From contig NZ_CP044205.1 in assembly GCF_009498235.1 (NCBI RefSeq), forward strand, positions 87,716 through 119,715: DNA of 32,000 bases, written 5' to 3'. The DNA is from Candidatus Methylospira mobilis. GTDB lineage: Bacteria > Pseudomonadota > Gammaproteobacteria > Methylococcales > Methylococcaceae. A program made the translations under genes and the position numbers. A model generated the notes under the pieces. The model was not told the origin of the DNA. It searched no databases and was given only the letters and a program-made list of their open reading frames with translations. Shown piece after piece: positions 16,754-24,921 of this stretch (positions within the stretch are counted from its first letter, which is position 1; each line of letters begins with the position of its first letter).

Positions 16754-16814
16754 CCGCCTCCGGTACGACGGTAAAGACAAGCAACAGTTATACGTGTAAC
16801 TAAAGAGGTGAAAA

Positions 16815-19187
16815 ATGACGTATATTTCATACAAGAAAGCTAGCAACCATAACCAGATAAACCGTGAAATTCTGCAACTCGTGGAAGAATTTAAAACGGA
16901 ATATGCGGTTTGCAACGATAAATTCCAGCTGGAAGTTGAAAGCACATACAAACAATGCGCCGGTTTCATGAGCTTCGATAAGAATAAAAGGCTTGCAAAA
17001 AGAAAGCTTGCCTACACCGGTATTGCAAGTGCTAGCGGCGCGCTCCTATTGCCCGTTGTGTTTTTAGGATCGGCAGGTATATTGTCGCCAATTATCGTGG
17101 CTGCGGTAGGCGCAACATTGGCTGTGGGAAAGAACGTCATGAGCTCCCTCGATCCGTCAAGAAAGTCGAATGCATTGGGTGTGCTAGAACACATTGCAAA
17201 TAACGCACTAAAAGCTGCCGAGTATTCTTTTTCAGCACAAGGCGAAGATATGCAGGCCTCCGGATTTTCATTCGGCTTACTATTCCCTGGTCTGCAAAGT
17301 AGAGATTATAGACAGGAGGTTATGAATCGCCTTAAAGACAATCCGGGAGGTGTGGTTGAACAACTGAGTAAATATGCGGCCAGCGTATCTGTGAAAGTAG
17401 CCATTCAAGCATACAGCAAAATGACAGATAAGCTTGCTTTTTCACAAGAAAAACAAAAATTGATTCCGTTGGCATTATATTTATTATTAGACGAAAAAGA
17501 CATAGGTGGGCGGCATAAGTCGCTGATAAATACAGGAGTAATTCAGAAGTCGGTCAGTGCTGATGTAAAGGATTTGAAGAGTGAGATCGATATATTAGAT
17601 AAAAAAACAAGTTTCGCTAAACAGTTTGCTAAATTCGGAAATAATAGTTTGTATGATAAATGGTTTGCAAACGGAGATGAACGCGTAACGAGAAATGAAA
17701 TTCTCATTGAAAAGGCGAGGATTATCTCTCATGCACCTGAGTATATCGAATCCTTGAAATTGTCATTCGGCGATATGTTTGCTAAACATGTCATTGATGC
17801 AGTAAGCAATATTTTACCTTCGGTCTTTACCAAGGATTTTAACAATAAAACACAAACAATAAAAGTATTAGGCTTTGCAAATTCCAGCGAGCATAGAAAG
17901 GATTTTGCGCTTGGAATGTATGCCTTCCATGCCGTGCTAATAAAGCATCTTGGCACTTATAATCTTGCAAGTCTTGGCGGTTTTGGTTTCAACAATGCAT
18001 TGGATGTAAAAGTCCACAATGCGCTTATAGATGCGCTTGCAACTCAGGCATGGGTTACGTCCCAGGCATATACAGGGGTGGGAATGCTGGGGCGTAGCTC
18101 TCAACTTACATTTACTGGTGATATGTGGGAAGCCAATGTATTTAATAAAATTGCCGAGCTGCCTTATATAAAGGCTTACTTTGATGTGGATGTCTACTGG
18201 AAAAAGGTAGGAATGGCTATCGGCGCAATTATCATTTCGAAACATATGCAAGTTAAGAAGATCGCTGAGGCTGGCGGCAATTTTGATAGCAAAGTAGATC
18301 AAGCACTCGAGGCGCTTGTAAAAATTGACAAAGGCGATATAGCGCAACTCAAAGTGAGTGATATTAAACAAAAAATAGAAAATGATCATATTGTGGAACA
18401 AATAAAAAAAGAGAATTTAGAAAAATTTAGTTTTGTAAAGTATATGAAGCTTGATAATAATATCATCGGGGCGGTGGATATTACTGATGAGGATCTTTAC
18501 GGCATGATGGCCACAGGAAAAAAACCTAAACAAGATAGTAAAGACCTAATTAAATGTATAGGCAACAGATTTAAAGACCTTTACTCAGATTTGATGAATG
18601 AGAGTAAATTTAAATGCGAACAATATATAAGTGAAGGGCTTCAACTAATAGGCGGGCATAATGCTGTAAATGACAGTTATCTTTCTCGAATGCAAAGTGA
18701 ATTTGAGTTGGCTGGTAAAGGTATTAATTCCAGGCAAGGCCCCAAGGAATTACAGGATTATATTGATGGTAAAGAAGTTAAAATTAAAAACTTTGTTAAT
18801 GCCAGCAATGCAAAACTTAAAATAAAAAAAACAACGTTAGCTAGCGCCTATAACTTGTCAGACCTCCAGAGCGCAGAAAAAGAAATAAATGAAGAACTGG
18901 TGAGTAACTTAAAAGCCCTGCAGCTAGGAGTGATAGCATCTGCTTCAGGCACAGGCTCGGCGACCTTGCAGTCTGATATCAATAAAGCGGTTGCCGAAAC
19001 TCTGCAACTTCTGGCCTATAAGCTTGGTGCTTTCGGCAAAATAGCAGATATCAAAGAAAAGGGCATCTCTGATAAAACCACTTCAATTGATCATGAAGCA
19101 AAAAGGCAGTCAGACGATCAACAAGTCATGCGAAATACTATTAATCAACTGGAAGCCAGACTTTCTAAACTTGAGAAGAACCCATAG
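16815..19187 (+). CDS. Hypothetical 790-aa protein with an N-proximal ~40-aa hydrophobic hairpin and a Lys/Glu-rich, coiled-coil-like C-terminus; T6SS effector candidate
   Basis: Long uninterrupted ORF in the AT-rich island, with gaggtg upstream of the ATG. The hydrophobic stretch 'LAYTGIASASGALLLPVVFLGSAGILSPIIVAAVGATLAVG' spans nt 17007-17129. No family was recognised. Confidence 0.6.
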   Translation: MTYISYKKASNHNQINREILQLVEEFKTEYAVCNDKFQLEVESTYKQCAGFMSFDKNKRLAKRKLAYTGIASASGALLLPVVFLGSAGILSPIIVAAVGATLAVGKNVMSSLDPSRKSNALGVLEHIANNALKAAEYSFSAQGEDMQASGFSFGLLFPGLQSRDYRQEVMNRLKDNPGGVVEQLSKYAASVSVKVAIQAYSKMTDKLAFSQEKQKLIPLALYLLLDEKDIGGRHKSLINTGVIQKSVSADVKDLKSEIDILDKKTSFAKQFAKFGNNSLYDKWFANGDERVTRNEILIEKARIISHAPEYIESLKLSFGDMFAKHVIDAVSNILPSVFTKDFNNKTQTIKVLGFANSSEHRKDFALGMYAFHAVLIKHLGTYNLASLGGFGFNNALDVKVHNALIDALATQAWVTSQAYTGVGMLGRSSQLTFTGDMWEANVFNKIAELPYIKAYFDVDVYWKKVGMAIGAIIISKHMQVKKIAEAGGNFDSKVDQALEALVKIDKGDIAQLKVSDIKQKIENDHIVEQIKKENLEKFSFVKYMKLDNNIIGAVDITDEDLYGMMATGKKPKQDSKDLIKCIGNRFKDLYSDLMNESKFKCEQYISEGLQLIGGHNAVNDSYLSRMQSEFELAGKGINSRQGPKELQDYIDGKEVKIKNFVNASNAKLKIKKTTLASAYNLSDLQSAEKEINEELVSNLKALQLGVIASASGTGSATLQSDINKAVAETLQLLAYKLGAFGKIADIKEKGISDKTTSIDHEAKRQSDDQQVMRNTINQLEARLSKLEKNP

Positions 19188-19314
19188 TATAAGCGCTTTG
19201 AAGTTTCGAGCATGTACATTGTTTTGAAATTATAAACATAATGCATATGGATATTTTCGCTTTTCCCAACGCCAAGTGACGTTTTAAATGCAGGTTATTA
19301 TTTGTAAATATGTT

Positions 19315-19504
19315 GTAACAATTCAGCGCCCCGGCTTTCCGTTCGTCCAGAGCCTGTCGAAGGATGAATGGAAAATCGTATCATATTGATAGTAGTCCGT
19401 TCATGGTTCGACAAGCTCTCCAGCCACATTCGCGGCGCTACTCCCACGAACGGACTAACTCAAAAGTTAATGGCAAAAAGGCTGAAGTGTATCTAAATGG
19501 TTAT
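19315..19504 (-). repeat. MITE/REP-like repeat, copy A (inverted relative to copy B)
   Basis: The reverse complement of 19336-19458 aligns by eye to 21333-21456 at roughly 85% identity. Both contain the internal hairpins 'agtccgttc...gaacggact' and 'ttccgttcgtc...gacgaacggaa'. The ends carry imperfect 12-nt inverted repeats: 'gtaacaattcag' at 19315-19326 and 'ctaaatggttat' at 19493-19504. Confidence 0.75.
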
Positions 19505-23259: not shown

Positions 23260-23303
23260 TAGCCATGATACCGGCGGAAAAATTATCGACCAGGAGGAAA
23301 AGC

Positions 23304-24791
23304 ATGCCGAAGAATAAATCAGTTGAGCAGTACGAGCAATGTCTGCAACAGACAACCAAGACCGATGCAGTCCGGGTTGCGCATCGCTTCTTGCAGGTAC
23401 TGAAGCGTCTTGGACGTAATGATGTAATAAGCAATATATTGTCCCGGGTCGGCAGGATCAAGATTGCTCGAACCAGGATTTTTGGGCCGTCTGTTGATGC
23501 GGAGATTGTCTCTTTTAATGAATACATAGATAATCTGATAAGTAACATACCGCGCGTTATCGAACTTTCCGGGCATGACGCGCATGCGGTTAAAGTGAGT
23601 TTTTATGCGCTCGCAAAAAATGCATCCGGCTCGAAAGCCACAATACCTATGGCTTTACAGGCCGTTTTTTGCAAGTATATAATTGATTCGAAAGCTTATT
23701 CGGCGGCGGCAATTGATAAAGACCCCGGATTGAGTTTTATTCGCAAGAACGCAAACAAGCAAAAATCCGCGAAGGATAAGTATGGAAAAATACTGAATGA
23801 AGAGGTTCCTGCCCTCATGGCTGTTTCCCATGCTCCGGCCTTGATAAGGAGTGATGAAGAACAGGAGCCGTTTCATGAGATAACGGAGGAGGTCAAACTT
23901 GCATTGAGGTGGCGTAAACTGCATGCTGCGGAGCTTGCTGAGGTCAGGAAATACAAGGATTATCCGGGGCTTGGAGAGTACTCCAAAAGAATTAGTCAGA
24001 TCGAGTTGTACGGTTATCGGTATTTCTGTTTTTCGGACCGGCATTCCAATAGCTGGGTATTTCCCAAGTTAAGCGAAAAAACAGGGGGGGAGAAAAAGCA
24101 GACCACGCTGCTTCTGGGTAAAGGCAGTACTGCCGATATTAAAACACAGAAAAGCGGTTTTTATGTAAAAAAATTTTTTAATGATCCGGTTGACAGCGCT
24201 GGATTACGGAAGTCATTTGTTTTGATGGAACGGCTGTTTTCCTATGCGCTTGCGAGACAAAGAGAAGATAGGTACAACGGATTTTTGGATAGAATATGCC
24301 CGGTGATTATGCTGGACACAGATAAAGGGTTTATGCCGTACCATAAACATAGCAGTATAGCGGCTCTGCTTGAAAAGTTGAAGGACGGACAGGAGTTGTC
24401 CGTATATTCGAAAAAAATTAATAATGATGTCCTTGCCAAGGCGTATGACACCGTTCTTGAGGATTTTAAAATATTGCTGACTATCGGATTGAAACGCGTT
24501 CCAGACGGCATGACAGATGCGCAAAAACCGGAAAGAGCAATGATGGGCGGGTATGGTTGGAACGAGTTGCACAATCAAAACCTGCTGTTTGACATTGAAA
24601 ATGGGCATTTTGTGATCATCGATCTCGATGATTATCCATTGGAATCTGTGGCAAATCGAAAGCTGCCGTATACCTGTAAGGTGAACGAGGATGATTATAA
24701 GGTAATTACGGCGAAAATAGATGGCATGCTTTCTTCGCTGTGTCGCGCGTTGGGCAGGAATTTTAATCAGGTTATCCATGGCACTGATTAA
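23304..24791 (+). CDS. Hypothetical ~495-aa protein with a possible protein-kinase-like fold in the C-terminal half; effector candidate
   Basis: ATG 23304 is preceded by aggagg (23292-23297). The track's alternative start is 23265. A Gly-rich loop plus Lys, 'LLLGKGSTADIKTQKSGFYVKKF', spans nt 24108-24173. A loop resembling the APH/kinase 'HGDLHxxNLL...IDxD' reads 'WNELHNQNLLFD..GHFVIIDLDD' (nt 24558-24632). Confidence 0.5.
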   Translation: MPKNKSVEQYEQCLQQTTKTDAVRVAHRFLQVLKRLGRNDVISNILSRVGRIKIARTRIFGPSVDAEIVSFNEYIDNLISNIPRVIELSGHDAHAVKVSFYALAKNASGSKATIPMALQAVFCKYIIDSKAYSAAAIDKDPGLSFIRKNANKQKSAKDKYGKILNEEVPALMAVSHAPALIRSDEEQEPFHEITEEVKLALRWRKLHAAELAEVRKYKDYPGLGEYSKRISQIELYGYRYFCFSDRHSNSWVFPKLSEKTGGEKKQTTLLLGKGSTADIKTQKSGFYVKKFFNDPVDSAGLRKSFVLMERLFSYALARQREDRYNGFLDRICPVIMLDTDKGFMPYHKHSSIAALLEKLKDGQELSVYSKKINNDVLAKAYDTVLEDFKILLTIGLKRVPDGMTDAQKPERAMMGGYGWNELHNQNLLFDIENGHFVIIDLDDYPLESVANRKLPYTCKVNEDDYKVITAKIDGMLSSLCRALGRNFNQVIHGTD

Positions 24792-24921
24792 TAATTGAAA
24801 ACGCGGGTGCTTCTGTTGAGTTAAATCCTGTTGTGGCGCATTTTATCTGCAATGCATAATGGCCATGGCGGTTGGTATGCGATAGAGGTATTGTTGTGTA
24901 TATCCGGAATTTTAGCTGCTG

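Follow-up and report, generated by a model that had tools for sequence, protein, structure and literature searches.

The window analysed here, a 32,000-nucleotide (nt) stretch of contig NZ_CP044205.1 (positions 87,716 to 119,715, forward strand), is DNA of Candidatus Methylospira mobilis and carries four long orphan open reading frames (ORF1 to ORF4) between a type VI secretion system (T6SS) cluster and a set of efflux genes. The host is a spiral-shaped methanotroph of northern wetlands with a genome of 54% G+C, and the paper describing that genome makes no mention of a type VI system (PMC6956133). ORF1, ORF2 and ORF3, the lipoprotein that precedes them and the RND pump that follows are identical to proteins within the annotated series QFY41267-QFY41274. 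A first-pass annotation, made from the letters alone, had described the four genes as an AT-rich island joined to the 3' end of the T6SS locus and had proposed that they encode a new, possibly eukaryote-directed effector set without immunity genes.

All four genes share one direction, as had been stated, lie on the plus strand and encode proteins of 790 amino acids (aa) (ORF1, 16815-19187), 550 aa (ORF2, 19567-21219), 578 aa (ORF3, 21523-23259) and 495 aa (ORF4, 23304-24791). ORF1 has a strong Shine-Dalgarno sequence and starts 61 nt past an IglE-type outer-membrane lipoprotein gene on the same strand (16253-16753), which occupies the tssJ position and is the last core gene of the T6SS cluster; no convincing terminator lies between the two. 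The intergenic gaps of the island measure 61, 379, 303 and 44 nt, and a promoter and terminator scan stayed near chance level and was uninformative. The start of ORF4 was corrected from 23265 to 23304, which is Met14 of a 508-aa frame, and at which a strong AGGAGG Shine-Dalgarno sequence, the annotation QFY41271 and the start of a homologue agree. No signal peptide was seen in the four proteins, their N-termini being judged by eye.

Base composition sets the four genes apart from their surroundings. A maximum-likelihood fit with two changepoints delimits a low-GC block at 16579-24938, and G+C content is 42.3% across 16815-24791 compared with 54.3% in 3359-16753 and 57.3% in 24922-32000, which bears out both the sharp drop after tssJ and the GC-rich character of the downstream efflux genes, identified as an MFS transporter, an RND adaptor and an AcrB-type pump. 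G+C at third codon positions is 0.37-0.50 in the four ORFs and 0.58-0.73 in the neighbouring genes. Likewise, the summed content of Asn, Lys, Ile, Tyr and Phe is 28-31% in the four proteins versus 15-27% in their neighbours, in line with the Asn/Lys/Ile-rich character noted earlier. The two spot values given before proved exact on recount (36.7% at 17461-17520 and 68.3% at 8581-8640); the latter is a local peak within a single GC-rich gene (8253-9998) and is unrepresentative of the flank. Separately, a G+C content below the genome value is also seen where the T6SS cluster begins (1-3357, encoding TssK, TssE, an unassigned 542-aa protein and a 195-aa VgrG-like protein), with 46.8% overall and 41% in TssE, and the T6SS cluster is thus itself compositionally heterogeneous.

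The deviant composition and sharp borders are those of a horizontally acquired island. No integrase, tRNA target or flanking direct repeat accompanies them, there being just an intergenic repeat found throughout the lineage and no tRNA gene in the window. The small ORFs in the gaps either overlap this palindromic repeat or lack conservation in a sister species, from which the one after ORF2 is absent; no adjacent cognate immunity gene was found on either strand in any of the gaps, as the first-pass annotation had held. A periplasm-targeted or lipoprotein partner is not present in the island, nor are genes for VgrG, PAAR or adaptors.

Each of the island proteins has one or two relatives among billions of proteins. 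ORF1 has one (P0015, 41-45% identity), ORF2 has one (87% identity, among 5.8 billion clusters), ORF3 has one (P0014, 33% identity), and ORF4 has two (85% and 39% identity, from an exhaustive HMMER pass over 1.84 billion representatives). Searches of Pfam, NCBIfam, PADLOC and PHROGs with whole proteins and sub-domains gave no match at curated thresholds, and tblastn with all four proteins against a plasmid collection gave none at E <= 1. A metagenome scan with a TssM alignment found nothing, and one with the ORF3-family alignment recovered the known contig and a short fragment only.

The same T6SS is present in a sister species sampled in ENA ERZ27245403/405 and JGI 3300031250/51 (TssM, encoded at 12695-16252 in the window, 91% and TssJ 90% aa identity). 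Its contigs show the gene orders partial orphan, ORF1-like, ORF2 and ORF2, ORF4, RND adaptor, AcrB, and all of its assemblies break after the AT-rich genes adjacent to tssJ. The dN/dS ratio (nonsynonymous to synonymous substitution rates) is 0.22-0.24 (0.218 for ORF2 and 0.235 for ORF4) at a dS of 0.29-0.33, values indistinguishable from those of TssM, TssJ, the RND adaptor and AcrB. This purifying selection and flank-like dS indicate that ORF2 and ORF4 are functional genes older than the species split. A recent acquisition of the island was therefore rejected; the earlier suggestion of horizontal acquisition retains its support from foreign composition and restriction to the lineage, but not as a recent event.

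ORF1 and ORF3 behave differently in the sister species. The ORF1-like protein (contig L001, 1186-3846) shares 45% identity with ORF1 at a dS of about 1, compared with 85-96% identity and a dS of 0.2-0.3 for the neighbours. The differences cluster in the C-terminal half and are suggestive of allelic replacement or of strong diversifying selection. A segment that covers nearly all of ORF3 (21376-23252) is replaced by 56 nt, as seen by blastn of contig L004 against the window. On another sister contig, L007, tssJ is followed by two AT-rich genes (36% GC; 11163-12167 and 12961-13284) that are not in the window. A 334-aa orphan on this contig contains the motifs ILIGHGAAGS and LCVCYAAE, which are reminiscent of C80 self-cleaving cysteine protease domains, and has no Pfam match; the product of a partial gene on it and P0013, a member of the ORF4 family, are similar at their N-termini (E = 7e-10).

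A more distant Methylococcaceae metagenome-assembled genome, L006, has the same T6SS type (TssM 51%, IglE-type lipoprotein 53%) and lacks all four ORF families. The question whether the island is absent from close relatives that share the T6SS thus has a divided answer: the sister species keeps an ORF1-like gene, ORF2 and ORF4, whereas L006 has none of them. Linkage to the T6SS cluster, with the 61-nt gap in the window and the three genes kept in the sister species, is accordingly maintained across relatives and is not universal. In L006, tssJ is followed by genes for DnaJ, a PIN-like protein, an M90 peptidase, a low-GC Sel1-repeat protein and V-ATPase, and inside its T6SS cluster lie a weakly OTU-like protein and an eCIS_core+DUF5636 protein. 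The OTU-like, eCIS_core+DUF5636 and Sel1-repeat proteins are other candidate cargo.

Judged from its component signatures, the upstream cluster (31-16753) is like the Francisella pathogenicity island (FPI) and not a canonical T6SS of subtype i (T6SSi). The FPI-specific components IglI, IglE and IglG all have counterparts. The lipoprotein in the tssJ position matches Pfam IglE_N at 105.7 bits (gathering threshold 26), and its best NCBIfam match is T6SS_IglE at 40.5 bits, under the cut-off of 75. An IglI-family protein in the TssA position (6843-7835, plus strand) matches NF041244 at 323.9 bits (cut-off 100). A PAAR-like protein (7854-8240 region) matches DUF4280 at 91 bits and has IglG as its best NCBIfam match, under the cut-off; a 195-aa protein (2770-3357 region) weakly matches the short Francisella-type VgrG, and TssF matches the canonical and the IglH models alike. 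Canonical TssK (TIGR03353, 181.8 bits, cut-off 100) and gp25/TssE are also encoded in the cluster, together with DotU and TssG signatures, and no IglA/IglB/IglC-type sheath and tube was found in the window.

The cluster further encodes an AAA+ ATPase (10034-12658, plus strand) that scores higher with ClpB (TIGR03346, 1101.7 bits) than with TssH (TIGR03345, 774.2 bits), the ClpB and ClpV/TssH scores both being under the curated cut-offs. The FPI has no in-cluster ATPase, and Francisella recycles its sheath by ClpB (PMC5924787); the protein may be a dedicated ClpB paralogue within the T6SS cluster, echoing the Francisella use of ClpB. Subtype ii (T6SSii) has been stated to be exclusive to Francisella (PMC4793230; PMC12955703). 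Since the literature confines T6SSii to that genus, the Methylococcaceae cluster looks like an intermediate or outgroup form.

The gene at 8253-9998, between the PAAR-like gene and the ATPase, encodes 581 aa at 58.6% G+C; its similarity to AMP-binding enzymes is limited to about 70 residues, which align with the N-terminus of that family. The gene is kept in the sister species (88% aa identity, dN/dS 0.23), and its position in L006 is occupied by the non-homologous genes for the OTU-like and eCIS_core+DUF5636 proteins. Possibly this is a slot for PAAR-associated cargo, comparable to IglF.

The one solid hint among the four domain hints given earlier is a membrane hairpin in ORF1. Residues 65-106 (17007-17132, plus strand; LAYTGIASASGALLLPVVFLGSAGILSPIIVAAVGATLAVGK) form a bilobed hydrophobic stretch of 42 residues, the sole segment in the four ORFs above 1.6 on the Kyte-Doolittle scale, and its position is kept in P0015. 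The N-terminal ~470 aa, hairpin included, are conserved, and the divergent C-terminal half appears coiled-coil-like by eye. The most conserved block of the protein spans aa 362-413 (17898-18053, plus strand; FALGMYAFH...KVHNALIDALAT).

ORF3 is likely a serine hydrolase, as judged from motifs that persist at low identity. LGTSD (aa 8-12), LYLTGFSRGA (aa 142-151, with Ser148) and EPVAGN (aa 185-190) all recur unchanged in P0014, at 33% identity. Three alpha/beta-hydrolase families of Pfam, namely Chlorophyllase, Tle1-like and FSH1, align with the GFSRG elbow at E values of 0.011-0.03, well under their gathering scores. Against DUF2235 (PF09994) ORF3 scored 13.9-15.1 bits (cut-off 27) over profile positions 98-133 only, a stretch of 36 residues, and no profile match reached the gathering threshold. 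The DUF2235 lipase hint is thus retained as a conserved GxSxG motif of the form GFSRG, but as a family assignment it is unproven, the similarity being confined to the elbow.

The homologue P0014 lies in a second AT-rich islet of three genes (L002 3538-9072, equivalent to L014 3542-9076) from the same samples as the sister species. This islet has 35-39% GC against 49-55% in its neighbours and sits between pyrF/HAD and patatin/RND genes. After the ORF3 homologue come two eukaryotic-like or atypical kinases, whose evident core motifs, HGDMHMGN...FDFG and HSDIKPAN...IDFG, correspond to the patterns HGDxxxxN/DFG and HxDxKPxN/DFG. Profile comparison found no kinship between these two proteins and the ORF4 family.

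ORF4 itself contains two kinase-like motifs, GSTADIKTQ..FYVKKFF (aa 274-292) and W-x-E-x-H-x-x-N-L-L-x-D...DLD (aa 419-442, nt 24558-24629). W419, E421, H423, N426, D430, D440 and D442, as well as the upstream GSTAD..K..YVKKFF, are invariant in the 39%-identical P0013. The H-x-x-N spacing and the G-H-x-x-x-I-D-L-D stretch resemble, in our assessment, the loops of phosphatidylinositol 3- and 4-kinases (PI3/PI4-kinases) more than the protein-kinase HxDxxxxN. The best match to the kinase superfamily was APH at E = 0.22 (11.7 bits); no significant match to PF00454, PF00069 or PF01636 and no match in the Protein Data Bank (PDB), with protein or profile, was obtained. The kinase-like fold read into the island earlier is thus weakly supported, at the level of motifs only. 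P0013 is encoded at L003 254-1741, beside an epimerase gene on a metagenome contig of 68% G+C, so that the ORF4 family, though extremely rare, occurs in genomic settings of very different kinds.

In the C-terminal domain of ORF2, H435, D450, Q479 and C486 follow the order of the CE clan and form a candidate papain-like or CE-type constellation. No Pfam family at all matched at E <= 10, either with the C-terminal 190 aa or with the whole protein, and C48/C55/C79-type membership was not found. The only homologue is 87% identical, and conservation of these four residues is thus uninformative. The CE-clan protease hint is thus without statistical support.

Two copies of the palindromic repeat lie in the larger gaps of the island, copy 1 at 19336-19458 and copy 2, inverted relative to it, at 21333-21456. 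The repeat (letters TTTCCGTTCGTCC.GAGCCTGTCGAAGGA and TCCGTTCATGGTTCGACAAGCTC) is about 120 nt long, resembles miniature inverted-repeat transposable elements or repetitive extragenic palindromes, and is common in intergenic regions of this lineage. Further copies occur in L001 (~3960-4050), L002 (3256-3390 and 10663-10722), L004 (~2690-2745 and 4380-4460) and L007 (~10700-10750). An island-specific mobility scar was rejected, as many intergenic copies are found on related contigs, some far from the island. The sole Rfam match, a sub-threshold small RNA on the repeat, was also rejected; the repeat corresponds to no curated Rfam family. One breakpoint of the ORF3 insertion/deletion (indel) lies inside copy 2, and the segment 24825-26930, which holds a Bcr/CflA-like MFS transporter gene and a gene-poor spacer of ~700-745 nt, is replaced in the sister species by 132 nt containing a repeat copy. 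The efflux locus is thus itself polymorphic, and because repeat copies stand at the breakpoints of both indels, the repeat may promote rearrangement.

We hypothesize that the block supplies an FPI-like T6SS with variable cargo and that its genes belong to new effector families whose targets are probably eukaryotic grazers; we give this reading a probability of roughly 45%. The four proteins would be substrates of the adjacent apparatus. ORF1 would insert into the target membrane via its bilobed hydrophobic hairpin, ORF3 would act as an alpha/beta serine hydrolase (lipase or esterase) through Ser148 in GFSRG, ORF4 would act as a phosphotransferase by means of a catalytic loop like that of PI3/4-kinases (E-x-H-x-x-N) and a DLD loop that binds metal, and ORF2 could be a cysteine protease. 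The composition, gene structure, orphan status, purifying selection, cargo-like variation of gene content among relatives, FPI-like apparatus and conserved motifs are observed, and secretion, enzymatic activities and target are inferred. The studied FPI-type systems are anti-eukaryotic and have orphan effectors without immunity genes (PMC5924787). Since the island lacks immunity genes and this type of apparatus acts only on eukaryotic cells in Francisella, the targets would likely be eukaryotic grazers, such as the amoebae and ciliates of peat wetlands. The FPI-like apparatus is, in our analysis, the strongest new argument for an anti-eukaryotic role, though one that works by analogy. The proposal of eukaryote-directed cargo thus gains from the island, the missing immunity genes and the apparatus type, but three of the four domain hints on which it also drew are without statistical support.

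Several observations weigh against this hypothesis. T6SSs are for the most part antibacterial, and the same often holds for lipases of the Tle1 type. As the first-pass annotation had anticipated, no DUF4123, DUF1795, DUF2169, PAAR, Rhs, integrase or transposase match exists in the four ORFs (Pfam, NCBIfam), and no MIX/FIX marker of delivery was found in these libraries either; all-against-all BLAST of the AT-rich orphans of the window and of the related loci revealed no common N-terminal or delivery domain. None of the domain assignments proposed for ORF2, ORF3 and ORF4 is significant, PDB sequence searches with single proteins and family profiles returned nothing relevant, and the AlphaFold2 models of ORF2 (two-sequence alignment) and ORF4 (three-sequence alignment) were unusable, with mean predicted local distance difference test scores of 30.3 and 37.6, respectively. 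On the side of the apparatus, the presence of canonical TssK and TssE means that the T6SS is not strictly a T6SSii, and the sheath, tube and spike genes lie outside the window. No T6SS gene accompanies P0014 on the 15 kb retrieved of a 19.8-kb contig or P0013 within 4.3 kb. Physical linkage to a T6SS is thus not a rule for families such as that of ORF3; the islet with the ORF3 homologue suggests a dispersed repertoire resembling the Francisella effectors encoded outside the pathogenicity island.

The most consequential rival sees in the block an AT-rich island that was acquired horizontally long ago, serves a function unrelated to the T6SS and is lodged at an insertion-tolerant junction between T6SS and efflux genes. 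The foreign composition and the lack of T6SS effector markers fit this explanation, as do the indel hotspot at the junction (ORF3 and the MFS segment) with intergenic repeats at the breakpoints, the ORF3-family gene in an islet devoid of T6SS genes, and the unrelated housekeeping-type genes that follow tssJ in L006. However, the island is co-oriented with tssJ across a 61-nt gap without a terminator, its genes are under purifying selection beside the T6SS in two species, a second ORF4-family gene lies near tssJ in the sister species, and no match to defence, phage or plasmid families was obtained. On balance we regard this explanation as somewhat unlikely, though it is the one to be taken most seriously beside variable T6SS cargo.

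A narrower and bolder version of the cargo hypothesis is that peat methanotrophs possess an ancestral or intermediate Francisella-type T6SS with its own ClpB paralogue, by which they deliver entirely new families of effectors into grazing protists. Among these effectors would be a new lipid- or protein-kinase-like enzyme, a lipase distantly like DUF2235, a protease of the cysteine type and a protein with a membrane hairpin. We consider this version, with all its parts, unlikely.

Alternatively, the four proteins could be antibacterial T6SS effectors whose immunity genes are located elsewhere, unrecognised or unnecessary. Such a role would accord with the antibacterial function of most T6SSs and with the life of methanotrophs in dense consortia, and the family that the ORF3 motifs bring to mind, Tle1/DUF2235, has some members that act against bacteria. 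Yet neither strand contains a conserved ORF of immunity size, no periplasmic or lipoprotein partner is encoded, the apparatus is FPI-like, and there is no PAAR, Rhs or VgrG fusion and no adaptor. We regard antibacterial effectors as quite unlikely.

It is improbable that the genes encode lineage-specific accessory or structural T6SS components rather than secreted toxins, with ORF1 for example as a membrane-anchored assembly factor. It is true that many proteins encoded within FPI-type clusters are unassigned (PMC5924787), that ORF1 carries a membrane hairpin and that the dN/dS values of ORF2 and ORF4 are similar to those of core genes; but all four genes are absent from L006 despite its same T6SS type, ORF3 is an indel between sister species, ORF1 is hypervariable, and the composition is unlike that of core genes. 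Finally, an anti-phage or conflict defence system made up of a membrane protein, a protease, a hydrolase and a kinase-like protein is highly improbable: although such enzyme mixtures in variable AT-rich islands are typical of defence islands, PADLOC gave no match at E <= 0.1 and PHROGs nothing meaningful, the proteins lack domains of the nuclease, NTPase or sensor kind, defence genes are missing from the neighbourhood, and the four families are nearly absent from billions of proteins, in contrast to widely spread defence systems.

By itself the orphan island is a modest curiosity, and if its proteins are not secreted it is an old AT-rich insertion of modest interest; what turns it into a concrete lead open to testing is its position beside a Francisella-like T6SS in an environmental methanotroph that can be cultured, the host strain Shm1 being in axenic culture. 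Should all four proteins prove to be substrates of the T6SS, they would stand for four effector families not seen before, whose detectable relatives are limited to two or three metagenomic lineages. Together with the apparatus beside them they would then show, contrary to the literature, that Francisella-type T6SSs occur beyond Francisella. The locus would also offer a tractable environmental model for the origin of anti-eukaryotic T6SS weaponry, and for the ecology of the methane cycle it would imply active resistance of methanotrophs to protist grazing. If the bolder version is true, the toolkit of T6SSii regarded as pathogen-specific would have evolved in environmental predator-prey interactions.

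Compared with known enzymes, ORF2 shares the order His435-Asp450-Gln479-Cys486 with the CE proteases Ulp1, XopD, SseL and YopJ. It departs from them in having no Pfam match at E <= 10 and a His-to-Cys gap of 51 aa, the distance in CE proteases being ~60-70 aa. ORF3 resembles the Tle1/DUF2235 effectors in its GFSRGA nucleophile elbow and its T6SS adjacency, and we take its LGTSD and EPVAGN motifs to be analogues of their N-terminal 'DGT' and 'DTV..G' motifs; unlike them, it has no adjacent Tli immunity lipoprotein and ends in ~250 aa of unrelated C-terminal sequence. The PI3/PI4-kinase-like group is defined by a DRHxxN catalytic loop and an HIDFG activation loop. ORF4 differs from it in lacking a PF00454 match and in having Glu for the Asp of DRH and DLD for DFG, whereas its E-x-H-x-x-N-L-L-x-D...G-H-x-x-x-I-D-L-D sequence resembles the loops of this group, whose members include the effectors OpiA, LegA5, LepB and Risk1; the family is described in PMC7298712.

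As a whole, the island is comparable to the vgrG/PAAR auxiliary clusters of T6SSi in that variable cargo lies beside a T6SS core and its content differs between related genomes, but unlike those clusters it contains no VgrG, PAAR, adaptor or immunity gene and no fusions to delivery domains. Relative to the Francisella T6SSii, the host is a free-living methanotroph instead of an intracellular pathogen, the apparatus keeps canonical TssK, TssE and an in-cluster ATPase, and ORF1 to ORF4 show no similarity to the Francisella effectors in Pfam and NCBIfam at E <= 1, libraries whose content of such effectors was unchecked. The Francisella effectors PdpC, PdpD, OpiA and OpiB are genus-restricted orphans, some of them encoded outside the pathogenicity island (PMC5924787; PMC12955703), and the repertoire of that genus includes the lipid-kinase effector OpiA, a phosphatidylinositol 3-kinase, and proteins with protease-like triads (PMC5924787, PMC7298712, PMC12955703). 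Like these effectors, the four Methylospira proteins are large, lineage-restricted, low-GC orphans free of PAAR or Rhs fusions and encoded at the edge of an FPI-type cluster.

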